IMG/VR virus record: IMGVR_UViG_3300031920_000341
Span: 16,267-80,266 of that record
DNA: 64,000 nt
Direction: 5' to 3' (one strand)
Source: a virus
Taxonomy: Duplodnaviria > Heunggongvirae > Uroviricota > Caudoviricetes
The translations under genes and the position numbers were made by a program. Of the stretch, positions 2,512-54,126 are shown one piece after another. The first letter of the stretch is position 1. Each line of letters opens with the position of its first letter. The notes beneath the pieces are model-generated. The model was not told where the DNA came from. It did no database searches and saw only the letters and a list, made by a program, of their open reading frames with translations.

Positions 2512-4230
2512 TTATTCTGTTTTTTCTTGTGATTCGTTAGCTTCTTGTTCAATTTCTTCAGGCGGCGGAGCATCTGCTACAATAAATGCATCATTTATTA
2601 TATGTATAGCACCATTTACTGAATAGTTTTTAATTCGTTTCAAAAAGTCAAGTGATAATTCATATGTAAATTTACTATATGTTTTTTTAACAACAGGTGC
2701 AAGGGTTTCATTATTCATAATAAAACCATATGTTCCCTTTTCTGGTTTATATGCTTTTATTTTTTTACTAAACTCAACATAAACTTCTTTATCCATTTCA
2801 GTAAGTTGACTAAAAAATTCTGTTTTTTGTTTTTTCTTAAGTTGATCGTTTCTCTTACGTTTAATATACTTTGCTAATTCAAATTTAGGAACAACTTCAG
2901 ATAATAAACCATATGTCGATACACTTGCTATATATTCATCTTCATGTTTTTTTGGAACCTCAAGTAATGAATTAAGAATATAAGGATATAAAATCCTTGG
3001 TATTTCTTTATATTCAAGTGTTTCATTATTTATTACATATAATGGATATAAATCATCATCATTAATTGTTCTTTTAACTTTTGGTGCATTATATTTAACT
3101 GAACGTTTTAAACTACGGTCAACAGCCTGTGAGCCCATTGCAACTAATAATTTATTTACCGGTTCAACTACAGTCTGAAAAAATTGCTCATTGTAATCAA
3201 CAGGAAATGCAAACTCAATTGGATAATTACCAGGAATGTATCCAAATACATTCATTTCTTCATTATCAGAATGCTTTGCATAATAAAATTTAATTTTAGC
3301 GCCTTCACGTATTTTATAGTACTTTCCAATTTTAGTTTCATTTATCATAAAATTATAATATAAAGAAGCTCTACTATTAATAGGCATTCCTTTTGGAATT
3401 TCTAATACTGTATCATCTGGTACGTATTCATTATACTTCTTTACAAATTTATTGAAACTAATATCTTCTACATCATTATTTTCATAACCCTTACGCATTT
3501 TCTTAAGATGAGGTATTATATCTTTTTCAAGAATGGTTTCCTTACCTTTATCTAACATGATTTCAACAAGCTTACGTTGTTGATCACGTGCCCACTTTGG
3601 TATAGATGCTTGTGCTAATCCGATTCCACGTGCTTTGATTTTATATTTAGCTGTTAAATCCCGGTGATCAGCAATTTTAATAACGTAATGTTTCTTACCT
3701 GTCCATATTCCAGAATATGAAATATTTTCAAGTGCGAAGTTCATATGGTTTTCTGTATTGTAACTACTCGAATATTCTTTAAATGCATTATTAAGAAAAC
3801 TTGAAAATCTAAAATCAATTATCTTTTTATTAAATTCAATTTGTTTGATATTTGATAATTGATAATTTTCTATTGAGGAATATGCTAAATCAAAATTAAT
3901 ATATGTTGAATCAGTATCTGAATAAATTGCACCCTCTATTGATGGTTTATTAATCTTTAAATGAGATATACCCAAATGTTCATGTAATTCTTTATCAAGA
4001 TGCCATCTTTCACGGAAATAATAATTAACTGCAGCAATACTATATTTAATAAGATCTTGTCCTTGTAAAGTAATACTCTGTGCAATATTTCTATCATGAA
4101 AATTAAACCACTTATTACCAAAAGCACCATAGATACTATTAATAATAATCTTTATTGCATATTGTTGTTGATTAAGATACGCAATACGTTTCTTAATATC
4201 CTTTATTCGATCTTCTTTAGATTGTTCCAT
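2512..4230 (-). CDS. Family B DNA polymerase, C-terminal subunit (second fingers helix, palm, thumb, extension)
   Basis: Motif B KIIINSIYGAFGN, SITLQGQ, motif C IYSDTDS, KKHY. Lacks the exonuclease domain and motif A. Confidence 0.92.
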   Translation of the reverse strand: MEQSKEDRIKDIKKRIAYLNQQQYAIKIIINSIYGAFGNKWFNFHDRNIAQSITLQGQDLIKYSIAAVNYYFRERWHLDKELHEHLGISHLKINKPSIEGAIYSDTDSTYINFDLAYSSIENYQLSNIKQIEFNKKIIDFRFSSFLNNAFKEYSSSYNTENHMNFALENISYSGIWTGKKHYVIKIADHRDLTAKYKIKARGIGLAQASIPKWARDQQRKLVEIMLDKGKETILEKDIIPHLKKMRKGYENNDVEDISFNKFVKKYNEYVPDDTVLEIPKGMPINSRASLYYNFMINETKIGKYYKIREGAKIKFYYAKHSDNEEMNVFGYIPGNYPIEFAFPVDYNEQFFQTVVEPVNKLLVAMGSQAVDRSLKRSVKYNAPKVKRTINDDDLYPLYVINNETLEYKEIPRILYPYILNSLLEVPKKHEDEYIASVSTYGLLSEVVPKFELAKYIKRKRNDQLKKKQKTEFFSQLTEMDKEVYVEFSKKIKAYKPEKGTYGFIMNNETLAPVVKKTYSKFTYELSLDFLKRIKNYSVNGAIHIINDAFIVADAPPPEEIEQEANESQEKTE

Positions 4231-4249
4231 ATAAAAAGTTTAATTATTA

Positions 4250-4276
4250 ATTATATGAATAAAATCATTATAGTTT
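4250..4276 (-). promoter_or_regulatory. Putative early/middle promoter AAACT-N16-TATAAT
   Basis: Exact motif 20 nt upstream of the polymerase C-subunit ATG; recurs with the same spacing elsewhere. Confidence 0.65.
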
Positions 4277-4280
4277 TTAA

Positions 4281-4605
4281 TTATAACTTTTTGTTTATGG
4301 TTTCGGTATGAAAATTTTGTTCTTTGTATATTTTCATACGATCATCAGCATGTTTTTTTGAATATTTACCAAAATCATCAATGATATCAATAACAGTAAG
4401 ATATTTCTTTGTTTTGAATTTACGAAGGCCACGACCAATTGATTGACGGATTAAAGTATATGCTTTATATGATTCAGTAAATATTATGTAAAATAAATTG
4501 CTAACATCAATACCTGTAGAAAATGTACCGTCAATAAGAGGCAACCATATTAGTTGCCTCTTTATTAATTTCCTTTATGTTTTTATGAAATGTAACTTTT
4601 GCCAT
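4281..4605 (-). CDS. uvsW: UvsW helicase C-terminal fragment (motifs V-VI), interrupted by a frame change at 4533-4530
   Basis: 4605-4531 encodes MAKVTFHKNIKEINKEATNMVASY*. Skipping TGAC gives GTFSTGIDVSNL...LIRQSIGRGLRK...VIDIIDD, matching T4 UvsW VASYGVFSTG...QTIGRVLR. Confidence 0.75.
4531..4568 (-). promoter_or_regulatory. RNA hairpin enclosing GAGG, ATG-GTT-GCC-TCT-TAT and the TGA stop
   Basis: TTAATAAAGAGGCAAC-TAATATG-GTTGCCTCTTATTGA: 10-bp perfect stem, extendable to ~16 bp with one bulge and G-U pairs. Confidence 0.75.
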
Positions 4606-4665
4606 GTCTTTTATATTTTTTAATATCTATATCAGTCATGATAAGTTTTTTAATTATATATTTAC

Positions 4666-6087
4666 TTATTTATATGAGTTTATCCAAGAATCTAATATAT
4701 CATCACCAACTATTATATCTTTAGCATATTTTATTTTCCCATTAGTTAATTTAACGTTTGTATATTGATTTACTTTTATTTTAATATCATTTAATTCAAT
4801 AATTGTAACTAATTCTAAATTATCCATAATATTTATATAATCGTCTCTATCATTTTCATCAACATTACCATCAATATAAAAAACATTAGTATTAGATTCT
4901 TTTAAATTTTGATATAGTTTATAACCATACTTATCTTTAACATTATTGAAAAGAAATAATTTATTGTTTGGTAATGCGCTAGCTAGTTTTTTTATGAATT
5001 CCATTCTAAGTGGATGCTTTATTATTGTTTGTCTTTCAAAATCAAATAATTCTCCGGCAAATTTTATTCTAGCATCGCCTTTAAGTTCATTACCTTTTGC
5101 TTTGAATTTCATATAATCATTAACTAATTCATCATTCTTTGGATATTCTAATATAATACGTTTAACTGTTACTTCTGGTGCATATCCATCCTTTATAAGT
5201 TGATGTGTTTCATATTCATATACAAATGGCCCAAAGAATTTCTGTACTGTAAGGAAACTTGATTTAGTTCTATTTTCAATTAAAGTTCCAGATAATCCAA
5301 ATCGTGTATGTAAAGTCCCACATGAATTAAGAATATTTTTAATACTATCACCTTTAATTCCATGTGCTTCATCTACACCAATATGATATACTTTTTTAAA
5401 ATCTTCTTTTTTTCTTCTAAGTAAACTTTGATATGTACTTATAACAATTTCGGCTTCATCAAATTTCTTTTGATTAAATTTACTTTTACCGCCAAAATAT
5501 GCTATTTTAATTGGAACTGATCCATTATTATAATTTTGTGTAAATCTTTTATATGTCTGTGATGATAGGCCTTTCTTAGGTACAACAATTAACATTTTAT
5601 GATTAACATCAATTTCTTTTGTCACTTTAAGATACATTGCAATTATAAAAAATATTACTGTTTTACCCGCAGCTGTAGATAAATCAGCGGCGGCATATTT
5701 ATATTTGAGTAAATTATATGCTGATTCATATTGGTAGTATCTTAATTCTTTTACATCAGTACCTTTAAAAATTGTACTAAGAAATTTATCGTAATGTTCT
5801 TTTGTTATATCACGCATAAATTCTTTTATTCCATCAATTTTAACTGTATATTGTGGTCTATCATGGAAAAATTTTAATAATTCATGCCATAAACCAAATG
5901 GTAGTTTATAACCCACAAAGAATCTATCCCATCCATCCCATGCACCTGATCGATATGCTGGATCAAAAAAGAAACTATCTCTTTCTCGTTTAAAAAAGCT
6001 TCTTAATTCCTGTAATGCATGATCATTAGGATATGAAGTTAAGATAAGGTGTTTGTAATCGTTTGTTGTTTTAAATACAAATTCCAT
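4666..6087 (-). CDS. uvsW: UvsW SF2 helicase, N-terminal fragment with C-terminal Hint-like tail
   Basis: WDGWDRF, LRYYQ (Q motif), TAAGKT (Walker A), VDEAH, GLSGT, FYIDGNV. Ends before motif V with a ~45-aa tail ...VKLTNGKIKYAKDIIVGDDI. Confidence 0.92.
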   Translation of the reverse strand: MEFVFKTTNDYKHLILTSYPNDHALQELRSFFKRERDSFFFDPAYRSGAWDGWDRFFVGYKLPFGLWHELLKFFHDRPQYTVKIDGIKEFMRDITKEHYDKFLSTIFKGTDVKELRYYQYESAYNLLKYKYAAADLSTAAGKTVIFFIIAMYLKVTKEIDVNHKMLIVVPKKGLSSQTYKRFTQNYNNGSVPIKIAYFGGKSKFNQKKFDEAEIVISTYQSLLRRKKEDFKKVYHIGVDEAHGIKGDSIKNILNSCGTLHTRFGLSGTLIENRTKSSFLTVQKFFGPFVYEYETHQLIKDGYAPEVTVKRIILEYPKNDELVNDYMKFKAKGNELKGDARIKFAGELFDFERQTIIKHPLRMEFIKKLASALPNNKLFLFNNVKDKYGYKLYQNLKESNTNVFYIDGNVDENDRDDYINIMDNLELVTIIELNDIKIKVNQYTNVKLTNGKIKYAKDIIVGDDILDSWINSYK

Positions 6088-6590
6088 TACTGTCCGGTCA
6101 GAACCGATTCAAGTTCTTCATTTGGAAAAACACTGAGTATTTCGTTTCTGATATCATCGTTTATTTTTATAACAAAACTAACGTTTTGTTCCCATTCATC
6201 AAAGGTTGTACCAATTGTTATGTTATCTGGGTATTCTTCGTTAATATATGAAACTATAAATTCACCTGGAATATCTGACAATGAACCAATATCTACTGAT
6301 TCAAAATTATATTCGGGTTCACCATCAATAAGTTCTCTATTTACACCAACATAATCAATTGCTAATGTTTGCCATAATGATGCATCTTTTGTTTCAATTC
6401 CCATTATATCTATTAAGTAAAGCTCTTCTTCCATTTTAGCAATAATAATCTCATTATTACCATACACATAAGTAAATGGTGTATTTATAACAGATTTTTC
6501 ACCTTGTGCTTCGTTTCTATTTGCTGGGTTATCTTGTAATTGATCAAACCAATCTTCGAATAATGGTAATTGAACCGATGTATTTGTCAT
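6087..6590 (-). CDS. Hypothetical acidic protein, possible internal head protein
   Basis: ORF; likely start ATG 6590 (MTNTSVQLPLFEDW), preceded by AGATAAATAAA at 6613-6603. Confidence 0.6.
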   Translation of the reverse strand: MTNTSVQLPLFEDWFDQLQDNPANRNEAQGEKSVINTPFTYVYGNNEIIIAKMEEELYLIDIMGIETKDASLWQTLAIDYVGVNRELIDGEPEYNFESVDIGSLSDIPGEFIVSYINEEYPDNITIGTTFDEWEQNVSFVIKINDDIRNEILSVFPNEELESVLTGQ

Positions 6591-6618
6591 GCTATTGTTT
6601 TTTTTATTTATCTGAAAA

Positions 6619-7083
6619 TTAAATACCCAATAGGTCTTCAAGTGCCATACGATTCTTTATAGCATATAAGATATGATCAACCGTTTTGATAGAATTAGTA
6701 TAAAAACTTATCTGTTCGTTAAATAAATCATCGATTTTCTTAACATTAATATGTCTAATATTGCCTTCTACCATTATATTTTTTTCAGTTAAGTTACGGG
6801 TCCTAAACTGCATATTATTGTTTATTTGTTCAAATAAATCATGTTTAATTACTACTTTCTTGTTTATTAATTGATTATGCATTATCATTAAGGTATGTGA
6901 ATCTTCCAATAAACGTTGTCTCATAGATAATGATAAGACAGTCAACTCACTAAGCTTATTAATATCTCTCATCATTATTATTAAAGTTTTAATTTCCGTG
7001 CTTAGATCTTTCCTATTCTTTTCAAATTTAGTATTGAATTGATCATATACCTCTTGACTAAAATCTTCCATATGATTTATCAT
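6619..7083 (-). CDS. UvsY-like recombination mediator
   Basis: 154-aa helical protein near uvsW; C-terminus IKTVDHILYAIKNRMALE resembles the UvsY FxIKN end. Confidence 0.55.
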   Translation of the reverse strand: MINHMEDFSQEVYDQFNTKFEKNRKDLSTEIKTLIIMMRDINKLSELTVLSLSMRQRLLEDSHTLMIMHNQLINKKVVIKHDLFEQINNNMQFRTRNLTEKNIMVEGNIRHINVKKIDDLFNEQISFYTNSIKTVDHILYAIKNRMALEDLLGI

Positions 7084-7089
7084 TTTAAT

Positions 7090-7149
7090 ATTTTATATGA
7101 TTTTTAGCAAAAGTTTCATTAAAACTTTATCTAAGTTTTTCCATATAAA
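7090..7149. promoter_or_regulatory. Back-to-back divergent promoters (AAACT-N16/17-TAwAAw)
   Basis: Minus strand AAACT(7116)-N16-TAAAAT; plus strand AAACT(7122)-N17-TATAAA; lies between divergent genes. Confidence 0.55.
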
Positions 7150-7187
7150 ATAAGTAAAACAATTATTAAATTAATATAAACAATAAT

Positions 7188-7757
7188 ATGAAAGAATTAA
7201 TTATTTGGGATTTTGATGATACATTTATTAGAACACCAGGTCCAGAAGCATTTAAAGAACTTATTGATAATAAAATATTAGATATTGATAAAATAAATGA
7301 AGATAGAATATTATTCTGGGAAGATTCAATTTCTCTTGATACTAATTATTTTCAACTTGTATCTAAAAAACCAGTTGTGGATTTATTTAAAAGCTATGAA
7401 GATCAGGGAAATGTTGAACATATTTTAATAACAAATCGTAGTACACGAATGTTACCACAAATTAATCGTATACTTAAAGGAATTGGTGTTAATATACCAC
7501 ATATTTATAGTGGTACAGATTATGGTGGAAAAATAAATGTATTAAAGAATCACATAAAAAAACATAGTCCATATGATTATTTTGTGGTAGTTGAAGATTC
7601 AATACATAATTTATATGACTATCAAGAATTTTTTCTTAGTTCTGCTTTACAACATAAATTTATATTTGTTAATACCCATTCGATGGGTGAAATTGTGGGT
7701 AGAATACCAAGAATGACAAATGAACAAGATGTACAAATGATTTTACATAAAGATTAA
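7188..7757 (+). CDS. HAD-superfamily phosphatase (RNA-repair 'Swiss army knife' HAD-like)
   Basis: Motif I IWDFDDT, motif II LITNR, K, motif IV VVEDS. Confidence 0.75.
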   Translation: MKELIIWDFDDTFIRTPGPEAFKELIDNKILDIDKINEDRILFWEDSISLDTNYFQLVSKKPVVDLFKSYEDQGNVEHILITNRSTRMLPQINRILKGIGVNIPHIYSGTDYGGKINVLKNHIKKHSPYDYFVVVEDSIHNLYDYQEFFLSSALQHKFIFVNTHSMGEIVGRIPRMTNEQDVQMILHKD

Positions 7758-7761
7758 ATAT

Positions 7762-8325
7762 ATGATAACACTACTCGAACATCCAGAAATGGACCAGGAT
7801 TTAATTAATAGAATGAATGAAAGAGCAGATTTTTTAGGATTTAAGTGTTTAAATCTATTTGAAATTAATGAGAAATTCCATTCTGGAAAATCTATAAATG
7901 AAAGATATAATATATTGAAAAGTTATATAGATCATATGATGGGATTTATTACATACCATTCTAAGATTGATACAACAACAAGTATACTGATAAATCCTGG
8001 TTTATTTTGGGTAACATGGCTTGCTGAAAAATTTAATATCCATGGAATTGATGAATATTTATTAAATGCTACAAAAAGTAATAATTTCAGTCGTATCGTT
8101 ACGCTATATGTAGTTCCAAGTATTGATAGTCAAAGTATAACAATAGATCAAAACTTTGATAAATCCTTTAAATTTCAGCATGATATCATGTTAAAAAACT
8201 ATCTTAATATTTCTGATAGTAGGCGTTATAATAAATATTATCATATTGTATGTAGTACAAATGACGATGATTTAGTTGCTGATGTTGAAAGGATGTTAAT
8301 AAAAACATGGAAGCTAAAGGCCTAA
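7762..8325 (+). CDS. Hypothetical protein
   Basis: 187-aa ORF tightly coupled to the HAD gene. Confidence 0.6.
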   Translation: MITLLEHPEMDQDLINRMNERADFLGFKCLNLFEINEKFHSGKSINERYNILKSYIDHMMGFITYHSKIDTTTSILINPGLFWVTWLAEKFNIHGIDEYLLNATKSNNFSRIVTLYVVPSIDSQSITIDQNFDKSFKFQHDIMLKNYLNISDSRRYNKYYHIVCSTNDDDLVADVERMLIKTWKLKA

Positions 8326-8369
8326 CAATTTTTTTAAAGTAAATAATAAAGAAAAACAAAATACATTAA

Positions 8370-10103
8370 ATGCCAGGTATAAGAACATTACAAGAAATTT
8401 ATAAAGACAAGAGCGAGGATTTTTTAGTCAAATTATTAAATTCCTTTGTTATAGTTAACCAACAAAATCAAGGTTCTTTTTTTTCATTTCATAAAGAAGA
8501 TGGTGAAGTTATATTTTCAAAGAAAGGTGGTATAATTACTCATATTGATAGGATTCTTATGAAATATTACGAAAGTGCCATATTACAAGTAAATCAAATA
8601 CCTGCAGATGTAATGTCACAAATTGATGATGGATATCAATTCTGTTTTGATTATATTCCTGACGAACCTGCTAAAATGAGCTTAACTTATATTGTAAACA
8701 TGCAAACAAACAAGCATGTACATACTAATGTTGAACTTCAAAAATGGGCTAAATTATTTAATGTCAATGGACCTAATATTTTATTTGAAGGATTTCTTTC
8801 AGATGAACAAAAGAAAGATATACTTGATTTTGTATATGCTGATGAAGAAAAACTGATCAGTAAATATAAAAAATATAGTTTTACTGCATTTTTATGTAAT
8901 TTATTTGGCATAGACGAAGCTAATGAAAATTTAAAATCTATAGTATTTAGGTTTTATTATGCAGGAAAAGAAACAGGAGCATATATCGGAAAGATGATTG
9001 ATCCATTATTTAAACATAGAACTAAAGATAATGAAAAGATACATGATATTGGTGTTAATGATTATGTGTATCTAATAATAATTGATTTAATGAATTTTAT
9101 TGAAAAGTATACAATACGTGATTTAAAACGTATGGTTAAACTTGGGCCGAATCAATATGATAATTATATTCTTTTAATGAATGCAATATTTAAAGAATTT
9201 ATTGCTGAGTTTGGTGAGAAGTATTTTAATATTAAAATTGAACCACCAAAATTTATGCAAAATGATATATTTGATATAAATTCAGATATGCTTGACGATA
9301 ATGCAGTAAAAGTACTTCTTGATATACATCCGAATTACAAAGAGATTTATAAAATATTATTAAATTTCTTTAGAAAGAAAAGGAAAAAGCCAAATGGTAT
9401 TTTTGATAAAAACTTACTTATGTACTTTAATGATTTGGTTAATAAACTTAATAAATATGTATTAAGTACCGATGTAATGGAAACAAGTATTCCATCATTC
9501 AATGAATATATTTCACCATTATCTGAAAACTTTACAATATACAATCCTTTATCGGATAAGAACAGTTTTAAAGCGTATCGTAAAACATTACCAATTACAG
9601 TATTGGTTGATGAATTCCAACCATTTTCAAATAAGCATGTTAATAATATGCTTGCAATGCACAAGAAATATAGAAATAAAATTGTATTATTCCCCATATA
9701 TAACGAATCAACATCAATGTTTTCTGGTCAACTTATGCAAAATATGATGTCCAAATTGATGAATGAATTCAGTAAAGTAATACATGGATATTATTTAGTC
9801 GAAAATGAATCTATGGATGGTATAGTTGATAAATTATATCCGGAGTACAAACTTAAGCATTTAAGCTCAAGTGCTCCTAGAATACGCGATTACGTCCTCT
9901 ATCTTGATTTTTTAAAGAACAAGAAGAAAGAGTTAAACATTGATAGAGATTTTACTATGGTATCTTTAGATTATGACAATACAGAAATAATAAATGCATT
10001 ACTTGAGGACAACTATCAGCTGTTCTCAGAAAATGTACCATCCTGCCTACATATGTTTTTTCCTGAAATGCGACACTCAATGAGTCAGCGTCAAGAAACA
10101 TAA
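8370..10103 (+). CDS. Two-domain protein: degenerate RNA-ligase-like N-domain plus degenerate HIGH nucleotidyltransferase-like C-domain
   Basis: VIVNQQNQGSFFSF (cf. EKxDGS), PNILFEG, KSIVFRF (cf. EGxV), GKMIDPLF; C-domain VLVDEFQPFSNKH (cf. GRFQPFHxGH). Confidence 0.5.
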   Translation: MPGIRTLQEIYKDKSEDFLVKLLNSFVIVNQQNQGSFFSFHKEDGEVIFSKKGGIITHIDRILMKYYESAILQVNQIPADVMSQIDDGYQFCFDYIPDEPAKMSLTYIVNMQTNKHVHTNVELQKWAKLFNVNGPNILFEGFLSDEQKKDILDFVYADEEKLISKYKKYSFTAFLCNLFGIDEANENLKSIVFRFYYAGKETGAYIGKMIDPLFKHRTKDNEKIHDIGVNDYVYLIIIDLMNFIEKYTIRDLKRMVKLGPNQYDNYILLMNAIFKEFIAEFGEKYFNIKIEPPKFMQNDIFDINSDMLDDNAVKVLLDIHPNYKEIYKILLNFFRKKRKKPNGIFDKNLLMYFNDLVNKLNKYVLSTDVMETSIPSFNEYISPLSENFTIYNPLSDKNSFKAYRKTLPITVLVDEFQPFSNKHVNNMLAMHKKYRNKIVLFPIYNESTSMFSGQLMQNMMSKLMNEFSKVIHGYYLVENESMDGIVDKLYPEYKLKHLSSSAPRIRDYVLYLDFLKNKKKELNIDRDFTMVSLDYDNTEIINALLEDNYQLFSENVPSCLHMFFPEMRHSMSQRQET

Positions 10104-10133
10104 GCTATAAATTCAAATAAATAAAAATAAAAA

Positions 10134-10322
10134 ATGGCGAAGAGTGCGAAAAAGAATTATTTAAATTATATCGCTGGTAAAGAGCCATTAGAACATGCTG
10201 TACTTCATCAAGGAGATGAAACGCCTATACATGACTTTATTAATAAGAACATAAATAGACGTTTTTGGGTTTTACCGTTTGAGAAATATAAGAAGTCACA
10301 GAAAAATAAAGGTAAAAAATAA
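10134..10322 (+). CDS. Small basic hypothetical protein
   Basis: 62-aa ORF after TAAATA (10118-10123); stop overlaps the next ATG. Confidence 0.6.
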   Translation: MAKSAKKNYLNYIAGKEPLEHAVLHQGDETPIHDFINKNINRRFWVLPFEKYKKSQKNKGKK

Positions 10323-13244: not shown

Positions 13245-13283
13245 TAAAGTACATTTATAAGACATGTCCCATAAATGGGATAT

Positions 13284-13322
13284 AATAGGGACAGAATAAA
13301 GGACATTCTGTCCCTATTTTTA
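13284..13322 (+). terminator. Intrinsic terminator-like hairpin
   Basis: AATAGGGACAGAAT-aaaggac-ATTCTGTCCCTATT followed by a T run. Confidence 0.75.
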
Positions 13323-15813: not shown

Positions 15814-17285
15814 TGGGTGTTAAATTAAAAACATATACTCAGCCAACAATACCATTAAAAGAAATGGCAATAATGGATACTGAAACACCTGATAATGAAG
15901 TAGGTGCTGAAGATACATCAGTATTAAAAAGTAGATTAACAGGTAGAATATCGCCATATCTTAAAATTGATGGATTTGTTTTGGATCATCATTCTATTAT
16001 ATCAATGGAAATAGATATTAAAGGAAATATACCAAAATATTCATTTACAATAATTGATAAAAATGGTGTATTTGCATCAAACCATATTCCAAAAAGCGAT
16101 ATTATAGCCAATTTATATATAAGATCTAGTAATGATACATATAAACCTATTCGTAATGATATTTATATAACACAGATTACTCCACTTGGTAGAGGAACTC
16201 CAGCTGAAGCATCTGAGGGTAAGGGTAATACGTATTTAATAAAGGGTATATTATTTATACCTAATATTAGTGACAAAAGCACAGCAAAGGCTTATCCTGG
16301 TACATCTAAAAATGCTTTACTTAAAATATCAGAAAATTTAAAATTAGGATTTGTTACAAATGAAGATGTAACAGTAGATTCTATGAATTGGCTTAAGCTT
16401 GATTCATATTATCAAGCAATAAATGATATAACGAAAAGTGCATATAAAAATGAAAATAGTTTTTATGATTGGTTTATTGATCCTTATTATTGTTTAAATT
16501 TTATTAATATTTCTGATATGCTTAATAGTGATGATAATTGGGATTATTTTATTCCGCAATTTGTTGGCGGTATTAAATATTTGAAAACATCATCACGTGG
16601 CGGCGGAGCAAAAGAACCTATTAAAAATATTGAAAATTCCGATATACCATTAATGCTTTCTAATTTATCTAATTTATCCGGTCTTGATAATTTTATTTCA
16701 TCATATAAATTAGTTACAAAACAAGGTTTAACATTAAATGAATATTCATATATGCATGGGTTAAATTTTTATGAGAGTACTGAACCATATAAAGAACCGA
16801 GTGAAAATTTTGTTAGTTATAATTTATCATCATATGAGATGTATAAAATAAAAAATACTGATATTAAAGATGTTAAAAGATATACTTATGGCGGTATAGA
16901 ATATCACAATGGACATGAATTTTATGTACATGCACAGACAATGAATAAGAAAAATTTATCTGAATTAAATAATATAAACCTTGTAGTTGAAACCGATGAA
17001 GTAAATTTTCATATAGTACGTGGTATGCGTATTCCTGTATTTATAATTAAAGAAGGCTTAGAAACAAGAAATGAGGATACTGATTCACAATTAGAAGATA
17101 ATAAAAGTAAAGCATTGAAGAAGATAGAAGATATTTTACAAATTAATATAAGTAATGTATTAACAGGATATTATTTTGTTCGCGGAATCAAATACACATA
17201 TGGTTTAAGCAATAGAGATGGATACTTCTTTAAAACAGAATTTACATTGGCAAAAACTGTATGGGAAGATTTTTTTAAAAATTAA
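15813..17285 (+). CDS. Putative baseplate hub protein (gp27/VgrG-like)
   Basis: Position between gp53-like and gp5-like genes; C-terminal LTGYYFVRGIKYTY...TEFTLAK hub-like ending. Confidence 0.5.
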   Translation: MGVKLKTYTQPTIPLKEMAIMDTETPDNEVGAEDTSVLKSRLTGRISPYLKIDGFVLDHHSIISMEIDIKGNIPKYSFTIIDKNGVFASNHIPKSDIIANLYIRSSNDTYKPIRNDIYITQITPLGRGTPAEASEGKGNTYLIKGILFIPNISDKSTAKAYPGTSKNALLKISENLKLGFVTNEDVTVDSMNWLKLDSYYQAINDITKSAYKNENSFYDWFIDPYYCLNFINISDMLNSDDNWDYFIPQFVGGIKYLKTSSRGGGAKEPIKNIENSDIPLMLSNLSNLSGLDNFISSYKLVTKQGLTLNEYSYMHGLNFYESTEPYKEPSENFVSYNLSSYEMYKIKNTDIKDVKRYTYGGIEYHNGHEFYVHAQTMNKKNLSELNNINLVVETDEVNFHIVRGMRIPVFIIKEGLETRNEDTDSQLEDNKSKALKKIEDILQINISNVLTGYYFVRGIKYTYGLSNRDGYFFKTEFTLAKTVWEDFFKN

Positions 17286-42771: not shown

Positions 42772-42778
42772 TGTTAAT

Positions 42779-45253: not shown

Positions 45254-45603
45254 ATTTGTATTATATTAATTTCATGTTCGGGTTTAAATTTAGTATGCTT
45301 TGTGTATATCATTCCAAAATCATGGTTTTTATCTTCTTCCATATTAATTTCTTTATTGCTTTTCATTATTATGATATTATCATAGTAATCAGAATATGTA
45401 ACATTACCAATAAAATTTAATTTAAACTTTTTAATTGCATCATAAATTGGTTTACCTAATTTTCCTCTTATTGTAATATCATCTGGTAAACTACCATATA
45501 TCTTTTGAAACATATCCATCTCTCGTAAAAAATCACGAGTAATTCTAAGTTTACGTTCTACTTCTGTTTCCCAGTCATATATGTAAAATGTACTTGATTG
45601 CAT
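45250..45603 (-). CDS. Hypothetical protein
   Basis: Overlap-coupled ORF between gp47-like and gp46-like genes. Confidence 0.6.
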   Translation of the reverse strand: MQSSTFYIYDWETEVERKLRITRDFLREMDMFQKIYGSLPDDITIRGKLGKPIYDAIKKFKLNFIGNVTYSDYYDNIIIMKSNKEINMEEDKNHDFGMIYTKHTKFKPEHEINIIQI

Positions 45604-46217: not shown

Positions 46218-47304
46218 TATTAATTCTTGTTTTTTCTAAAGATGAATTATATATTTCATTAAATAATTCCATTATATCATTAATTTCATTTGGTTGATAT
46301 ATTCCATTGCCGCTAAGATTACCTTTTGCTAATGCTTGTATATCTAAATTAAATTTAAGAATGGTTGGTGTACTACCAGCGACATCAGGAAATGGATCAA
46401 AATCAAATTTATGTAATGTTCCTACTAATTCTTTGATATAATTCTTAACATCATCCTTTTGTATATGTTGTATAACAGAATTAGGGCCTTTAACTTTTAT
46501 AAATGAATTATAACAAATATCTTTTAATTGAGCATCTGTCATTTCAAGTAAATCAAATATATCAATATACTTAAATTCCGGAGATTTATCATTCCTAACA
46601 AAATCCATTTTCATATTAGGCATATCAAGTGTATATAGACCTTTTTTCTGTCCAATATCACCAAAATCTAAATGATATGGTGTTCCTAAGTAAATAAAAT
46701 TATCTTTTACTTGTGGTTTGTGAATATGACCTGAAATTACAATTTCATATTTTTTTAATATAGAAAAATCAATACCTTTTTGTATTGGATAACCATTATC
46801 ATAACTCATGCCAGCAACATCAAAATGAGAAAATACCATATCGGCTTTTCCTACATTATCTTCAAGTAATGTCATGATTTCATTAAAATCAGTTATCCAA
46901 GGAATAATTAATAATTTTTTATCGTTTATTCCTATAATTTCTGGTTTATTAAATACATGTACATTGGGAGTATTATATAAAATTTTTAATGAATGAATTT
47001 CATTGTTATCTGTATAATATGTGTCATGGTTTCCAATAAGAACATATACTGGAATTAATTTTGCTAACTCATAAAACAAATCCATTACATTATTGAATAT
47101 ATTTACATTAATTTGGTGTTTGGTTTCAAATATGTCACCAAATTGAAATAATATATCACCTGGCTGTACTGTTTCCTTAATATAAGGTATCAGAATGTCA
47201 TTAAAAAATCTTTTCTGGTGATTAAGCCAAACGATTGAATTTGCATCTACACCAAAGTGTAAATCACCAACCAAATATATTTTACCTACTTTGTTTATTT
47301 GCAT
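46210..47304 (-). CDS. Recombination endonuclease nuclease subunit (gp47/SbcD/Mre11-like)
   Basis: GDLHFG, GDIFE, GNHD, FSH, SGHIH, YLGTPY..DFGD. Confidence 0.95.
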   Translation of the reverse strand: MQINKVGKIYLVGDLHFGVDANSIVWLNHQKRFFNDILIPYIKETVQPGDILFQFGDIFETKHQINVNIFNNVMDLFYELAKLIPVYVLIGNHDTYYTDNNEIHSLKILYNTPNVHVFNKPEIIGINDKKLLIIPWITDFNEIMTLLEDNVGKADMVFSHFDVAGMSYDNGYPIQKGIDFSILKKYEIVISGHIHKPQVKDNFIYLGTPYHLDFGDIGQKKGLYTLDMPNMKMDFVRNDKSPEFKYIDIFDLLEMTDAQLKDICYNSFIKVKGPNSVIQHIQKDDVKNYIKELVGTLHKFDFDPFPDVAGSTPTILKFNLDIQALAKGNLSGNGIYQPNEINDIMELFNEIYNSSLEKTRINNE

Positions 47305-47329
47305 GTTAATTTATTTGTTCACTTGCATA

Positions 47330-47509
47330 TTATATAATATTAGTTAATGTTTCTCCATCAATTTCATATGTTTCAATGTAATCACCAGTATCCCATTCTT
47401 TGTATACTTCAATTACAGGAACAATAAGATTACCTATTTCCTTTTTAGTGAAAAAACCTATTACCCATTTTTTATTGTCTAACCTTCGTGCTTTAAATTT
47501 TACATTCAT
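47330..47509 (-). CDS. Small YopX-like protein (59 aa)
   Basis: Below the ORF-track cutoff. MNVKFKARRLDNKKWVIGF...TYEIDGETL resembles YopX N-termini and fills the gap. Confidence 0.6.
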   Translation of the reverse strand: MNVKFKARRLDNKKWVIGFFTKKEIGNLIVPVIEVYKEWDTGDYIETYEIDGETLTNII

Positions 47510-47513
47510 GATT

Positions 47514-47996
47514 TTAAAACATTTTACTTGTTTTTCCTAATATATTTATAGACTTATCTAATTCACTAACAAGTTCTGATTTATATTCAAACTTAAGAAA
47601 ATCAAATAGTGTTTTTGTTTTTATTCCTGTTAAACTTGATAATATATCAAATAAATATATTACATTAAACATATAACGATTACTTGGATCTTCTAAAAAT
47701 ATTACTTTCATTTTACCAAAGATCTCATTTAATACTTCTTTGTTAAATTTCTTTTTTACTTCTACATTAAATTTCTCTTTAAAATAATTATCGGTTTTAA
47801 TTTTTTCAATAATTACACGTTCCATATATGAATAAACTGTATGATTATCAAAATCATCAAGTTGACTAATTCCACCGCCAATTTCCGCCTTATTAATTTT
47901 TATTTCTCTAGTCGCAGTAAAGTCTTCTTTTAAATTTGTACCAACGTGATAACTATTATTAAATATTTTATCAACACGTCTTTTTTTATCTGCCAT
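47514..47996 (-). CDS. Hypothetical protein
   Basis: 160-aa ORF coupled to the helicase stop. Confidence 0.65.
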   Translation of the reverse strand: MADKKRRVDKIFNNSYHVGTNLKEDFTATREIKINKAEIGGGISQLDDFDNHTVYSYMERVIIEKIKTDNYFKEKFNVEVKKKFNKEVLNEIFGKMKVIFLEDPSNRYMFNVIYLFDILSSLTGIKTKTLFDFLKFEYKSELVSELDKSINILGKTSKMF

Positions 47997-49687
47997 TATA
48001 ATTCAACTTTTTTTAATAACTCAGTATATTCATCACTTGGACCATATTCGGTTTTTACTAGTGTGTTTAAGCTATGTTCTTCATTTTGTTTTACATGAAT
48101 TTTTTCTAATATTTCCGGATCTATTTTATAATCTTCAATATCTGTTGCTTGTGGCATAGTAGCAATTTTTTCTGTTTTACTATTTGCCATTGTATTTTTC
48201 TTATATGAATCATTTATTATTTGAGACATACTAGAATCAACACTTAAATTTGCATTTACATTACCAAGTGCACTTGCTGCAATTCCTAAGTTATTATATT
48301 CTTGATCCATTGCTGTTTCTAAACTATCCATATCCTCATCTGGCCAAAATTCACTATCGGTTGACCAATCTTCGATTATACGATAATACTTCTTTGACTT
48401 CCTAAAATACTTATAACTATTCATGTGCCCTTCATCTCTGTTTGCAATGTTTTTTATTTTAATACGTTGATCGGCAGAATTGCCAATTAATCCGAATAAA
48501 CTATCAACTGTAGCAACAAGTCCTGAGGATTCTGCTGTAGAATCTAAAAATAAATCATCAGCATTAAAATAAGCAGCTTTAACCTGTGTAGCTGAAAGTA
48601 TACACCAATTATTTCTTTTTGCAATTTTACGTAATTCTTCAGATATTGATTTAATCTTCTCATACATATTTGCCTCACCCTTATAATATTTAAGTAAGTT
48701 AATATAATCAATAATAATTAAATCAAATTTCATATCAAGTTCCTTTTCTTTACTAAGGAAAAAGTTCTCAACATCAAGAGATGTCATTGCACCGGTTGGT
48801 CCATCTTCTACAATTAATCTACCTAATTCATTCTCACCAGCTGTTTTCTTAATTGCATCAGCAACCATTGAAATACTTTGTTCATCAGTAAACCCTTTAT
48901 AAGCAGTATATGGAATATTAAATGCATTTGATCCTAATCGCTTCATATACTTAGCGGCAGAGAGCTCAACACTATATAATCCAACATTAAGTTTATTAAA
49001 TAATCCACGTACTGCAATATTACCTAATACTAATGACTTACCAACTTTTGGTGGACCTTCAAATACAATAAGTGTACCTGGTTCCCATCCGCCACCCAAT
49101 ACTTTATCAAAATATGGAAATCCAGTTGAATCATTTTTTTTAATCATCTGAATATGTGCAACAGGATCCATTATATCAAATCCTTTTTTTCTACCGGTTA
49201 AATCTATATTAAGTTCTTCATTAAACCTGTTCTTTACTTCATCAATAGTTTCTTCAATATTCTTTGGTGTAATCTTTTTCATTTTAAGTTCACCCATAAT
49301 CCCATCTACTGTTCTGTTGAGATTACCCTTCAGAATGAATGTTTTCATATATTCATATAAGAAGTCGGATTTATATCTATGTAAATTTAAAGAAAACATT
49401 GTTAATATATTTTCTTCTTCAAAATCATAGTTTTTAGTTTTAATTACACTAAATATTTCATTTACAGTTGGTATCTTACCATATTCAGTTGTGTATTTCT
49501 TTATTGCATCAAATACTATTTCACGTTCTGGATTATCGAAGAACTTTCCACTTAAGTTATGAATAACTTTAAATCTATCAATAACTTCATTCTCTACATC
49601 ATATAATTCATAATCATCATCTACTTTTACAATATAGTTGAGGATTGCGTTTTCAAATACTTCTGTGTTTTCGTCAAAATTTATCAT
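47996..49687 (-). CDS. Replicative helicase (gp41/DnaB-like)
   Basis: STGFPYFDKVLGGG, GPPKVGKS, SVEL, IIIDYINLL, SATQ, ESSGL. Confidence 0.93.
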   Translation of the reverse strand: MINFDENTEVFENAILNYIVKVDDDYELYDVENEVIDRFKVIHNLSGKFFDNPEREIVFDAIKKYTTEYGKIPTVNEIFSVIKTKNYDFEEENILTMFSLNLHRYKSDFLYEYMKTFILKGNLNRTVDGIMGELKMKKITPKNIEETIDEVKNRFNEELNIDLTGRKKGFDIMDPVAHIQMIKKNDSTGFPYFDKVLGGGWEPGTLIVFEGPPKVGKSLVLGNIAVRGLFNKLNVGLYSVELSAAKYMKRLGSNAFNIPYTAYKGFTDEQSISMVADAIKKTAGENELGRLIVEDGPTGAMTSLDVENFFLSKEKELDMKFDLIIIDYINLLKYYKGEANMYEKIKSISEELRKIAKRNNWCILSATQVKAAYFNADDLFLDSTAESSGLVATVDSLFGLIGNSADQRIKIKNIANRDEGHMNSYKYFRKSKKYYRIIEDWSTDSEFWPDEDMDSLETAMDQEYNNLGIAASALGNVNANLSVDSSMSQIINDSYKKNTMANSKTEKIATMPQATDIEDYKIDPEILEKIHVKQNEEHSLNTLVKTEYGPSDEYTELLKKVEL

Positions 49688-49697
49688 TAATAGATTT

Positions 49698-50018
49698 TTA
49701 TATTTTATAAAATAATTCTAGCGCTTGTTTGGTAAAGGTCATTTTTGATCCTTCATATTTAAAATAAACTTGTTCAAATATATTATATAACAATTTTTTA
49801 ATTTGTTCTTTCTTATTTTCATCAGAAAATGCAGGAATAGCTTGTTCTAACTCTGAAGACTCTAATATAAAGTCATTTATGCCCCATTTCTTTTTCCGTT
49901 TATTTTTAGACATAATGTATCTAAATATATCAAAAAGAATATCTTTTTCAGTAGGATATTCTTTTGATAATCTATATGCATTAATCTTGTACTTTAATTC
50001 GATGTCTTTATTTTTCAT
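49698..50018 (-). CDS. Hypothetical protein
   Basis: 106-aa ORF between uvsX and helicase (the position T4 gp40 occupies). Confidence 0.6.
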   Translation of the reverse strand: MKNKDIELKYKINAYRLSKEYPTEKDILFDIFRYIMSKNKRKKKWGINDFILESSELEQAIPAFSDENKKEQIKKLLYNIFEQVYFKYEGSKMTFTKQALELFYKI

Positions 50019-51300
50019 CTTCTAATGTAAATTTAACTTCTTTAACTTTAGTATTACTTAGTGCTTCAATACTTACATTTTTTAAATCATCTTCAACTGA
50101 ACTATATTGAAGCATTGGTTTAATTATATTTTCATCAAGCATTTTTTTAGTATTTGGTGTAAATGCAACATCACTTAAAACAACATCAGGATCAATATTT
50201 TGTAATGTATCACCAACGGCAAATGTTCTAGCACTTGAATTTCTAACAAAAGCAAACTTTTGATTAACTTTATCAATTTTCTTTTCAAACCAAAATGTTT
50301 GAAGTTCTTTTTTTGTAGAATTAACAGCAATACCATTTTTCCATTTTTTCATAAATTCTTCTTCTGGAAAAATTGTACCTTTATCAACCATACAATTTTC
50401 CCATGTTAATAATTCATGTATTCCCCAATATTCATTCATACCGTGCATAAATGATAAATGAATTTGAATTGTTTTTGGTACGGCAAGTCTATTCTTATAT
50501 GCTCTGGCTTTTAATAATACTCCAGTTTGTGTCTTAGCACCCTCGCTACCTTCTTTAAAGTATTTCTTTTCTAATAATAAAATAATACTTGCAGCAAATG
50601 TAGGACCGCCGCCGCCCGATGGAATCTCTTTATCTTGTGAGAATAACTCAAGTGTTGCTCCGGTATGATTTGTAAATAAAAATGGAATTGCTAAATTGGA
50701 TAAATCTAATGTGATATTACGAAAAAGTTGTCTACCTTCTTTTGCACGAAGACCCATATCAGCTGCTGATTTGCCAATTTTTGCATCTGCAAGTTCTTTT
50801 GTTGTATTTAACATAGCAAATGAATCAACAACAATCATAACTTTTAAATCCGGATATTTCTTCTTTTGTTCAATTAATGAAGTAATGAAATGTCTAAGTG
50901 TATAGAAAAACTTAATTGTTTTGATTAATTCAATTTGTTTAATATTAATACCCATACGTACCATATCAATTTCATCTATTGCGCCCTCAGTATCTATATA
51001 ATAAACATAATAACCTAATTTTTGTGCTTCACGTACAATATTCATAGCGAGGAATGATTTACCTGTACCAGATGGACCAGCTAATTCAATACTTCTTGTA
51101 TTTGGAATACCACCAAATATAGAACCACTTAATATTGCATTTAACATTAAATTACCAGTTCCGATATATTCAGTAATACCACCAAATTTTTTGAAGAGAT
51201 CAATATTGGTTTCTTCTTTTGTTGTTTTAAACTTTTTTGAAAGTTCTTTGTTTATATCAATAAAGCTTTTATAATTTTCACTAAAACTTTTCTTTGTCAT
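50008..51300 (-). CDS. uvsX: UvsX/RecA-like recombinase
   Basis: TGNLMLNAILSGS..GGIP, GPSGTGKS, DTEGA, VDS, DMGLRAK, TNH, SGGGG, KNR. Confidence 0.93.
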   Translation of the reverse strand: MTKKSFSENYKSFIDINKELSKKFKTTKEETNIDLFKKFGGITEYIGTGNLMLNAILSGSIFGGIPNTRSIELAGPSGTGKSFLAMNIVREAQKLGYYVYYIDTEGAIDEIDMVRMGINIKQIELIKTIKFFYTLRHFITSLIEQKKKYPDLKVMIVVDSFAMLNTTKELADAKIGKSAADMGLRAKEGRQLFRNITLDLSNLAIPFLFTNHTGATLELFSQDKEIPSGGGGPTFAASIILLLEKKYFKEGSEGAKTQTGVLLKARAYKNRLAVPKTIQIHLSFMHGMNEYWGIHELLTWENCMVDKGTIFPEEEFMKKWKNGIAVNSTKKELQTFWFEKKIDKVNQKFAFVRNSSARTFAVGDTLQNIDPDVVLSDVAFTPNTKKMLDENIIKPMLQYSSVEDDLKNVSIEALSNTKVKEVKFTLEDEK

Positions 51301-51677
51301 TATAACATTATTTTTTTATCAGATATGACAATATCTCTACGTCTCTGATCAGCCATTATTTGTTTAGCTTTATCTTCACCATATAATTCAGTAAAGTTTT
51401 TAAGTTGACTTGTGTATCGTTTACGATCAGCTTCAGCCTGATCAAATGAAATTTCTTCTAAGTATGCATTATGTATTGCTCTACCATGTTTAATATTTTC
51501 ATCTGTTATATTTACCCAACCTTCAAAGTTATTAGGTTTTTGTTGTTTAAAATGTGATCTTCTCATTCTTCTATCAGGATATACGCCAGGAGGATTTTTT
51601 TCTTTTCTTCTTTCTACTGATAATGGTTGATCTAAAAATCTAATAATTGTCTGTAATGTTTCTCGTCTTATTGCCAT
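51300..51677 (-). CDS. Hypothetical protein
   Basis: 125-aa ORF in operon. Confidence 0.6.
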   Translation of the reverse strand: MAIRRETLQTIIRFLDQPLSVERRKEKNPPGVYPDRRMRRSHFKQQKPNNFEGWVNITDENIKHGRAIHNAYLEEISFDQAEADRKRYTSQLKNFTELYGEDKAKQIMADQRRRDIVISDKKIML

Positions 51678-51693
51678 TTTTTCTTTAATTTTT

Positions 51694-52125
51694 TTATGCT
51701 AAATATGATATCAACATAAATAAAGATGCCGATAAAAATATATCCATGTTTGAATCTTTTATTAGAGTAGGGTATTGTGTTACCTCATATGTATCCTTTA
51801 TAGATTCAGCATTGATTTTCTTTATTACTGGTGTTAAATTAATTCCATATAATGGTGTATCTTTCGCATTATAAATATTTTCTCCGGACAATACGCCAAG
51901 ATAAAATAAATTATTAAGAAATTCTTCCATTTCTTCTTCTTCTACAATAATTTGAAATTTTTCTTTGAGAAATTTAAATATTGCATCACTATTTGATTTA
52001 TTATTATGCGAAACAAATAAAATACTATTTCTATCCTGATCTGTTCTACTTGTCAGTATGTTCATTATTGACTTTGACTTTTCGTCTAGTATGAACGGTA
52101 TTATTGCTATTAGTTTTTTTTCCAT
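51694..52125 (-). CDS. Hypothetical protein
   Basis: 143-aa ORF. Confidence 0.55.
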   Translation of the reverse strand: MEKKLIAIIPFILDEKSKSIMNILTSRTDQDRNSILFVSHNNKSNSDAIFKFLKEKFQIIVEEEEMEEFLNNLFYLGVLSGENIYNAKDTPLYGINLTPVIKKINAESIKDTYEVTQYPTLIKDSNMDIFLSASLFMLISYLA

Positions 52126-52717
52126 TAGATATTAATTTTTTTTTTTCATCGAGTAGAACTAATAACGATGCTGTAATTACTTCATTCTTGATTCCTTCTT
52201 GTACATAACTCGAAAGTTCATTTAAAAATTCTTTTGAATTTGCCGCATTTTTATACATTGCCTTTAAGAAAGCAATATCAGGTAACTTAATTTTTATATT
52301 AAGTGGTAAATCATATTCATCATTATTAAATTTAGAAAAATATGATTCCTGTGGTTTAACTGGTTTTTGTTCTACTATATTATTTACTTGTTGTTGTGTA
52401 CGCATTGGAAATTGAGTATTAGTTTCAAGTTCCAATTCAGCAAACTCAGGTTTTGATTTATCAATTAACGGCGCGCCACTTAACGATTCTGGTGCACCCA
52501 CATTAACATTGACATCATGTATACGTAAATACTTATCAATTACTGATAATTTTAACGAGGCGCCATCTGGAAATTCAAGCATAAATGAATCACCTCGTTC
52601 ACTTACATCTTTTGCTTTTATTATTTCACCTTTTACGTATTTTCCGAATGGTCTAACTACCTTAAAAGGATAAGTTAGATATTGGTTTTTTATACCTTCC
52701 ATTATATCACTTGCCAT
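52046..52717 (-). CDS. Hypothetical protein
   Basis: 223-aa ORF downstream of the polymerase N-subunit. Confidence 0.6.
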   Translation of the reverse strand: MASDIMEGIKNQYLTYPFKVVRPFGKYVKGEIIKAKDVSERGDSFMLEFPDGASLKLSVIDKYLRIHDVNVNVGAPESLSGAPLIDKSKPEFAELELETNTQFPMRTQQQVNNIVEQKPVKPQESYFSKFNNDEYDLPLNIKIKLPDIAFLKAMYKNAANSKEFLNELSSYVQEGIKNEVITASLLVLLDEKKKLISNGKKTNSNNTVHTRRKVKVNNEHTDK

Positions 52718-52728
52718 ATCTTTTATTA

Positions 52729-54126
52729 TTATTTTTCTAATTCTCTAAGTTCTTCTTCAAGATCTTTTATTTCATTTTGAACTTCAACCCTTAATCCATA
52801 TAGATAAACTAAAAGTTCTTTTGTAACTGAGTCGAATTCAAGTGTAAATACAGTATTGTTTTTTGTTATTGTATATGAACCAGGCATTAACTCATTTAAA
52901 TTAATTTGATCTGCTTGTCCAAGCAGACTATCCATTGATATATTGAATTGTATTTGAATATTTGGATACATTGATGAAAAGTCAAAACATACAATATTCC
53001 TATAAAATCCAGGTATCGGTTCTTTTACATATGCTCCTTTATATTTACTTTTATCATCTGTTTGAAATTTATTTTCTTTAGTTGTATGTAGATTACGATC
53101 AAGTAATCTTTTTATAATCATAAGCTCAGTCATAAATACTGGTCCAAATATTCTACTTATCTCTGTTCGAGCAATTGCAGAAATAGCAAATGATGCTTTT
53201 AATTGTTCTAAATCTTCATCAATCAATTGGGGTAATATCGTATCTATTATGTTATACTTTAAAAACTTAAAATGTTTTTGTTGAAGTTCATAAAAACTTT
53301 CACTATGTGTCAATTTCTTAATTCCAAGCACCCTGTTCGACGTATAATCTAAAGAGTGGTTTTCCATATCATCTAATGGTTTAAACTTCTTCAGTGCGTC
53401 TATATAATCAATAATACCCATATGAATAGGTATATTCTCTCTACCGAATGTTTCATGCGAAAGTAAATACTTTGTAATATCAATTTTATTATGCTTTACT
53501 GTTCTATTGTAAATGGTTTGCCAGTCAAAATTAATAACATTCCATCCGGTTAAGAAACCTATCTTAGGCATAAAATATTGAACAAATGCCGTAAGTAAAT
53601 CCTTTTCTGTTTTAAAGTAAGTATAGTATAACTTAAACTTTCTATTAAATGGTAAAAAGTATTCATTTACTTCAACCTCAAGTTGAATTCGTTCTTGATC
53701 ATCTAAATATTTTGTAGTTAATACATAAATATTATCACCTTCTACTAATGTAAGTGCATTAATTGGACAAGGTGCAATTTCAGGATCAGGAAATTTATTG
53801 CTTTTATCAACTTCAACTTCAATATCTACATAAAATACTTTTGGTGGTGCAACCGAAGATATTTTATCCCAATCATCTTGTGTAAATCGTTCATGCATTA
53901 TTTCTTCAATACGATAACGATTTAAATAATGAGTTCTCTTTTTAGAAACATAACGTTTATCCCAATTTCTACCTTCTGGTGGTCCATCACCAGCTGTATG
54001 AGGTACCCATTCGAATAAATCTTTTGATGTTATCTTTTTCTTAATATAATCAAGATTTCCTTCTTCATCATAATATGATACTAAAAGAGCTTCATGATTT
54101 TTATTATATTCTGCACCTACGAGCAT
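52729..54126 (-). CDS. Family B DNA polymerase, N-terminal subunit (3'-5' exonuclease, motif A, first fingers helix)
   Basis: ExoI YVDIEV, ExoII GWNVINFDW, SLDY, ExoIII YNIIDT, YKGAYVKEP, motif A FDFSSMYPN. Ends LRVEVQNEIKDLEEELRELEK*. Confidence 0.93.
   Translation of the reverse strand: MLVGAEYNKNHEALLVSYYDEEGNLDYIKKKITSKDLFEWVPHTAGDGPPEGRNWDKRYVSKKRTHYLNRYRIEEIMHERFTQDDWDKISSVAPPKVFYVDIEVEVDKSNKFPDPEIAPCPINALTLVEGDNIYVLTTKYLDDQERIQLEVEVNEYFLPFNRKFKLYYTYFKTEKDLLTAFVQYFMPKIGFLTGWNVINFDWQTIYNRTVKHNKIDITKYLLSHETFGRENIPIHMGIIDYIDALKKFKPLDDMENHSLDYTSNRVLGIKKLTHSESFYELQQKHFKFLKYNIIDTILPQLIDEDLEQLKASFAISAIARTEISRIFGPVFMTELMIIKRLLDRNLHTTKENKFQTDDKSKYKGAYVKEPIPGFYRNIVCFDFSSMYPNIQIQFNISMDSLLGQADQINLNELMPGSYTITKNNTVFTLEFDSVTKELLVYLYGLRVEVQNEIKDLEEELRELEK

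Follow-up and report, generated by a model that had tools for sequence, protein, structure and literature searches.

Family B DNA polymerases (PolB) made from two genes are known from the T4-related Aeromonas phages 25, 31, 44RR and 65 and from Acinetobacter phage 133, in which gp43 is supplied as gp43A and gp43B (Petrov et al. 2006, 2010, as relayed in PMC3061061 and PMC2988022). Just 2 bp to 3 kb lie between the two genes, and often this gap holds nothing but a homing endonuclease gene (PMC3061061); gp43A and gp43B of phage 25 co-purify and are active (PMC2988022). Here we describe a polymerase of this family in a 64,000-nucleotide stretch of IMG/VR virus record IMGVR_UViG_3300031920_000341 (positions 16,267 to 80,266 of that record; hereafter the window), derived from an uncultured jumbo phage whose only recognised DNA polymerase is encoded by two genes 48.5 kb apart. 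Like gp43A/B, the two products are separated at the tip of the fingers, between the fingers helices (after the helix equivalent to that of R482 and K486, before motif B), with no intein at that site. Unlike the neighbouring gp43A and gp43B genes, those in the window are not adjacent cistrons and belong to different operons. The fingertip is also much shorter here (19 + 26 residues) than in phage 25, where, as checked directly, gp43A ends 27 residues past the QRK arginine and gp43B starts 47 residues before motif B, and the window lineage is only ~21–32% identical to T4-type and cyanophage enzymes. With a probability that we put at roughly 85%, the two genes encode two subunits of one replicative gp43-type family B polymerase, assembled non-covalently.

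Three other kinds of two-gene PolB bear on this locus. The PhiKZ (chimallivirus) proteins DNAP-N (gp82) and DNAP-C (gp50) form a stable, interdigitated, RB69-like 1:1 enzyme with polymerase and exonuclease activity (PMC13648687, a 2026 preprint). As in the window, this is an intein-free family B polymerase from two unlinked genes, but its break lies in a large lineage-specific palm insertion after motif A, whereas here the break is at the fingertip and the palm has no insertion; the PhiKZ halves are also much larger (638 + 731 residues) and carry extra domains. Methanothermobacter thermautotrophicus has a natural two-gene PolB, 85 kb apart and without an intein (Kelman et al. 1999, via PMC3061061); that enzyme is archaeal and, by the account in PMC3061061, is broken in the palm, ~83 residues C-terminal to the fingertip position. 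In the split-intein PolBs (Nanoarchaeum equitans; PolB16 OarG, PMC10189870) there are likewise two genes, but their products are rejoined by trans-splicing at motif C, and neither intein blocks nor junction residues are present here. An engineered Pfu polymerase split at the fingertip, whose fragments form a stable, fully active 1:1 enzyme with wild-type kinetics when expressed together or apart (PMC3061061), supports the view that this site tolerates a break, although that construct is artificial, archaeal and bicistronic.

In the part of the literature covered by our search, no account of a fingertip split with unlinked genes turned up for Lak or huge phages. Neither a fingertip-split gp43 encoded by neighbouring genes nor an unlinked split PolB (PhiKZ, Methanothermobacter) is new in itself; what is new is the gp43 fingertip break combined with stable dispersal of the genes, and this combination as the rule in a large clade.

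Results

The two genes and their products

Both halves lie on the minus strand. The N-terminal half (N-half; 52729–54126, 465 residues) comprises, as judged from its open reading frame (ORF), Pfam and AlphaFold2, an N-terminal domain, a 3'-5' exonuclease with Exo I–III, the initial portion of the palm, which includes motif A, and fingers helix 1. By the same means, the C-terminal half (C-half; 2512–4230, 572 residues) comprises the second fingers helix with motif B, the remainder of the palm, which includes motif C (YSDTDS) and the KKxY motif, the thumb, and an extra C-terminal module of ~130 residues. An earlier reading of this DNA, referred to below as the original prediction, had placed the two frames at these coordinates and had quoted their ends, and we find both as it described them: the N-half closes with ...VQNEIKDLEEELRELEK directly before its stop codon (last residues ...ELEK), and the C-half opens with MEQSKEDRIKDIKKRIAYLNQQQ (first residues MEQSKED), followed by KIIINSIYG and YSDTDS. 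Neither ORF has an internal stop.

The N-half matches the Pfam families DNA_pol_B_exo1 (PF03104, E-value 4e-11) and DNA_pol_B (PF00136), the latter over profile positions 18–144, and the C-half matches DNA_pol_B from profile position 147 on. The halves are therefore complementary and do not overlap, in agreement with the claim that they are non-redundant. Alignments of 65 natural homologues of the N-half and 46 of the C-half were used both for conservation and for building the AlphaFold2 models. Invariant columns in the N-half are D101, E103, D201, Y291, D295, D382 and R446 (equivalent to RB69 R482); Exo I (D101-I-E103), Exo II (N196/D201) and Exo III (Y291/D295) are invariant or nearly so, and motif A is represented by D382, S385, Y387 and P388. 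The C-half holds motif B (K27, N31, S32, Y34, G35), motif C (D105-T-D107-S) and KKxY (K179, K180, Y182), of which K27, N31, Y34, D105, D107, K179, K180 and Y182 are among the invariant columns. The motif set of a T4/RB69 gp43-type family B polymerase is thus complete, distributed over two chains.

Position of the break

The AlphaFold2 models have a mean predicted local distance difference test (pLDDT) score of 93.0 for the N-half and 87.6 for the C-half. Residues 1–465 of the N-half superpose on RB69 gp43 residues 4–501 (Z 28.6, 408 aligned), and residues 1–443 of the C-half on RB69 residues 538–901 (Z 24.2, 330 aligned), so that the sole RB69 stretch with no counterpart in the two models is 502–537, the variable fingertip loop. 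Neither model has a large insert relative to RB69, in the palm or elsewhere. A sequence search against solved structures gives the same assignment, with the N-half matching RB69 gp43 residues 107–435 and the C-half matching from residue ~540–556 on.

The first fingers helix (residues 434–464/465; 52732–52827, minus strand) extends to the C-terminal residue of the N-half and contains R446, one of the invariant positions. It is a 31-residue helix by DSSP (434–464), modelled at pLDDT 93–96, and aligns with helix 1 of full-length relatives and of RB69; the chain ends 19 residues past R446. The second fingers helix (residues 2–36 by DSSP; 4123–4227, minus strand) aligns from RB69 residue 538 and runs into motif B, the C-half beginning 26 residues ahead of K27 (RB69 K560). 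In an alignment with 16 one-piece relatives, the 19-residue N-tail and the 26-residue C-head fill the positions of the native fingers helices, with no additions at either end.

Beyond the end of RB69 gp43, C-half residues ~444–572 (2512–2910, minus strand) form the ~130-residue module, predicted as helix-helix, three strands and two helices. It occurs only in some homologues (the forms of 539–596 residues), and it has no Pfam match above cut-off and no match in the PDB within the aligned ranges.

Arrangement in close relatives

Of 91 IMG/VR stretches related to the N-half at 36–43% identity, the best 80 were kept as loci, and in none of these 80 does a C-half lie within 3 kb of the N-half. A scan of viral contigs with the C-half as single query gave no match, owing to divergence, and the C-halves of relatives were located by searching the records that hold N-halves. 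In five long related records (39–47% identity), each half occurs once, with the N-half upstream of the C-half on one strand and 43–67 kb between them; the distance between the genes, which the original prediction had singled out for checking in relatives, is thus large in all five. A gene-by-gene comparison of the window with two of these relatives (G001 and G005) shows the spacer to be collinear over its full length, at 26–61% protein identity. More than 20 conserved genes lie between the halves, among them UvsX, a gp41-like helicase, gp47 and gp46 homologues, structural genes and UvsW. Given the collinear spacer and the shared order, the arrangement is therefore ancestral to the clade. One public record labels the C-half of a relative 'DNA polymerase subunit B'.

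In the 208-kb record of which the window is part, the two halves are the only PolB matches, and no match to a family A polymerase (PolA) or to Pol III alpha was found. The two most complete relatives (estimated at 100% and 93%) likewise hold no other polymerase family. Outside the window, the PolB-type exonuclease domain is matched a second time, on its own, in a 252-residue ORF (G000:C1:100993-101154; PF03104, 31.9 bits).

Charge at the two ends

The original prediction had the halves zipped by a charge-complementary antiparallel coiled coil, with an acidic heptad at the end of one and a basic heptad at the start of the other; on this view, a coiled coil made for the purpose would be the chief force in assembly. 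Net charge in this phage is -5 for the N-tail and +2 for the C-head, both ends have three to four spaced hydrophobic residues and are predicted to be helical, and opposite net charges also occur in three of the six other genome pairs with which the window was compared. The homologues at large do not follow this pattern, with a mean N-tail charge of +1.1 (range -6 to +8) and a mean C-head charge of +0.3. Among all seven pairs, both ends are positive in two (relatives G004 and G005), and the polarity is reversed in Prevotella phage Lak-A2. From the charge ranges of the homologues and the seven pairs, charge complementarity is therefore not a conserved principle of assembly, and the acidic N-tail of the window (-5 against a family mean of +1.1) is an outlier.

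Tail and head together contain nothing beyond the native fingers helices of one-piece relatives, and the spaced hydrophobic residues are consistent with antiparallel helix packing of the kind found in the native fingers hairpin. In addition, the palm, common to both chains, would give a much larger interface, as in PhiKZ and in split Pfu. A dedicated zipper is for these reasons unlikely, and the supposed device is better described as the native antiparallel fingers helices cut at their tip.

Promoter-like motif and transcription units

It had also been proposed that the transcription units of the two halves begin at the same AAACT-N16-TAWAAT motif. The motif is indeed present on the minus strand at both places, as AAACT-N16-TATAAT 19 nucleotides before the C-half ATG (4250–4276) and as AAACT-N16-TAAAAT at 54698–54724, but the latter site fronts a dUTPase gene (54126–54680, minus strand, probable ATG at 54680; Pfam dUTPase, E-value 9.6e-18), 17 nucleotides before its ATG. 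Since the motif precedes the dUTPase gene, whose stop codon overlaps the ATG of the N-half as TAATG at 54126, the N-half is the second gene of its unit. A dUTPase gene is also found directly upstream of the N-half in LR756500.1.

The motif occurs six times in the window (4250, 7090, 21076, 33911, 54698 and 61948) against 1.0 expected, a number reached in 0 of 100 shuffles, and 22 times in the 208-kb genome (G000) against 2 for a reversed control. Within the window it stands before gene starts, including those of the C-half, the dUTPase/N-half unit and an SSB-like gene. The motif is real, but it belongs to a promoter-like class that marks about 22 units across the genome and does not tie the two halves specifically to each other; a shared promoter class, and with it co-regulation of the two genes, is plausible from the sequence. 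In the window the motif usually lies 4–20 nucleotides before the start codon, with no obvious Shine-Dalgarno sequence between. Widening the spacer to N15–17 gained mostly intragenic sites, and the counts given here are for N16 alone. There is no enrichment of the T4-type late promoter TATAAATA, with 27 copies in the window against 28.6 expected.

The separate operons are one reason to ask whether the halves might also act apart, for instance if the N-half by itself served as an exonuclease in proofreading or repair, or might differ in the timing or level of their synthesis, so that their separation would be regulatory and not neutral. The N-half is translationally coupled to the dUTPase and the C-half has a promoter-like site of its own; the halves have relocated independently in relatives, to opposite strands, to distances from 10 kb to >200 kb, and in one case (L119) with the C-half directly before the N-half; and the N-half alone folds confidently (pLDDT 93). 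Against this, one class of promoter-like motif is common to both halves, and the two are found together, in single copy each, in every genome examined. We consider separate roles or separate schedules quite unlikely.

Splicing and artefact

It is very improbable that the halves are joined after expression, whether by protein trans-splicing through a typical or atypical split intein or by RNA trans-splicing of intron halves. PolB genes can hold split inteins, one with an N-fragment of just 15 residues, and the C-half of Lak-A2 contains an intein-like insertion at motif C; even so, the ends in the window are too short for the atypical PolB split inteins described (15 + 168 residues; PMC10189870), and both the 19-residue tail and the 26-residue head are helical and align with the fingers helices. 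Neither half has a Pfam match to a Hint or intein family, the nucleophile/HN junction is absent, and the C-half opens directly in PolB sequence, with no space for a C-intein of 35–170 residues. At the nucleic acid level, only 11 nucleotides separate the N-half stop codon from the next ORF, the promoter-like motif stands 19 nucleotides ahead of the C-half ATG, and no Rfam family reaches its gathering score anywhere in the window, so that no intron is indicated. Together with the mapping onto RB69, the Pfam and Rfam results bear out the description of a gp43-type PolB that is encoded by unlinked genes and broken at the fingertip, with neither an intein nor an intron.

A misassembled contig, or two polB pseudogene remnants alongside another working polymerase, would be conceivable for a metagenomic contig estimated to be 78% complete, but this reading has a negligible probability here and is already refuted for the clade, because five independent contigs (39–47% identity) have the same order and strand and a similar spacing, with a collinear spacer in the two compared gene by gene, the catalytic residues are invariant, the ORFs have no internal stops, complete relatives hold no further polymerase family, and neither a full-length polB nor decay of the halves, which the original prediction had named as the findings that would speak against it, is seen in the 208-kb record.

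Wider distribution of the split

Among deposited phage genomes, the best matches are the Lak megaphages and the 460–735 kb phages LR756500–LR756504 and LR745206, and the halves are separate in all of them. The distance is ~10.5 kb in LR756500 (same strand), ~101 kb in LR745206, ~132 kb in LR756502, ~221 kb in Lak-A2 (opposite strands) and ~281 kb in LR756504. The half ends of Lak-A2 also lie at the fingertip. The Lak-A2 C-half (L097 2881-5029; MK250019.1, ~345.5–347.6 kb) is interrupted at motif C by the intein-like insertion mentioned above, which has Hint-like stretches and an ...AHN|S junction back into polymerase sequence, and its sequence appears as two ORFs, 273 and 329 residues long.

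An exhaustive search of 1.84 billion cluster representatives, of which the best 150 matches were used, gave 113 N-halves of 400–540 residues and 21 one-piece proteins of >800 residues. In the aligned subset of these representatives, the N-half stops 13–36 residues past the invariant arginine; homologous N-halves thus end at the corresponding spot, as a check of the split position in relatives had been meant to establish. In trees built from the N-half region, one-piece forms appear at scattered positions, and at least 14 changes of state are needed to account for the well-supported branches. A single origin of the split was rejected (for a tree uniting all split forms, a log-likelihood difference, delta lnL, of 1563 and, by the approximately unbiased test, p-AU = 8e-84), in a test whose groups were named after the tree was viewed.

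For more distant split representatives, neighbourhoods were sampled through IMG/VR scans in two other subclades, which yielded more unlinked cases and one genuine one-piece gene (L116); the scan for representative P0071 gave no match. In one lineage (L119/L120), the C-half gene is immediately upstream of the N-half gene, in a permuted, C-then-N order. In L119 (2661-5539; IMGVR_UViG_3300028887_000080), the C-half gene (445 residues) ends 2 nucleotides ahead of the N-half gene (512 residues). From the scattered one-piece forms and the unlinked and permuted cases, the fingertip is therefore a recurrent point of fission or fusion, and the halves behave as independent genes.

These observations allow a stronger, tentative proposal, which we think rather unlikely: that the fingertip break is a repeatedly evolved and selectively maintained trait and not a neutral scar, with the split and one-piece states exchanged at least ~14 times and the halves behaving as freely movable genes, up to hundreds of kilobases apart, on either strand, or with C directly before N. 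If so, the open fingertip could alter the enzyme, for example in its tolerance for bulky or modified deoxynucleoside triphosphates, as seen for split Pfu; other options would be exchange of subunits, or separate control of dosage in phages with very large genomes.

Genes next to the C-half

The final 62 nucleotides of the C-half are overlapped by a gene for a 134-residue protein with a T5orf172/MUG113 domain (2169–2573, minus strand). In the five long relatives (G001–G005) this position holds a primase-like zinc-finger gene, and the T5orf172 gene is a possible mobile insertion. A phage-encoded GroEL-like chaperonin of 538 residues (556–2172, minus strand) follows shortly downstream of these two genes. 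On the other side, immediately upstream of the C-half, the gene for a UvsW-type helicase is likewise fragmented (4281–6087, minus strand): a 473-residue N part (4666–6087) carries the UvsW_N and DEAD/ResIII domains, and a separate 87-residue ORF (4281–4544) resumes helicase motifs V–VI. Two fragmented replication genes therefore stand side by side.

Discussion

The two proteins of the window would together make one gp43-type polymerase whose chain is broken at the fingertip loop. From the N-subunit would come the N-terminal domain and the proofreading exonuclease, along with fingers helix 1 and the portion of the palm that bears motif A; the C-subunit would add fingers helix 2, which includes motif B, as well as the thumb and the portion of the palm that bears motif C. 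The subunits would be held by the contacts of the one-piece enzyme, namely a palm to which each chain contributes and fingers helices packed antiparallel against each other, and neither an intein, an intron nor a dedicated zipper would be needed. The palm, which has motif A in one chain and motif C in the other, should be the main interface if PhiKZ and split Pfu are a guide. The arrangement is old and stable, and has been inherited across the jumbo-phage clade together with the roughly 45–67 kb of replication, recombination and structural genes that lie between the halves.

Several points weigh against this assembly. Association and activity of the halves are argued from analogy. The 208-kb record is estimated to be 78% complete, and a further polymerase in the missing part is possible for this particular phage. 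When the C-half is folded alone, its first 50 residues are modelled with low confidence (helix pLDDT 40–74), as would be expected for a helix modelled apart from its partner. Furthermore, the C terminus of the C-half has no recognisable clamp-binding tail, ending in an acidic stretch after the ~130-residue module. Given the co-purification and activity of phage 25 gp43A/B (PMC2988022) and the behaviour of split Pfu (PMC3061061), a non-covalent heterodimer nevertheless is the best reading of the two genes. The feature is real and conserved and looks functional, and in its mechanism it is nothing unusual among split PolBs.

The finding leaves the picture of family B polymerase function unchanged. 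It indicates that an essential replicase, otherwise a single chain, can be maintained over long evolutionary times as two unlinked genes, cut at one surface loop, and that the split is the normal state in a large, mostly uncultured group of phages that includes the largest known phage genomes (Lak and the 460–735 kb phages). Annotation pipelines, and phylogenies or completeness checks with polB as marker, have to look for both halves, or they will mis-score such genomes. Because split, one-piece and permuted-order forms all occur naturally in this family, it provides a series in which protein fission and fusion can be studied and from which split polymerases can be designed.

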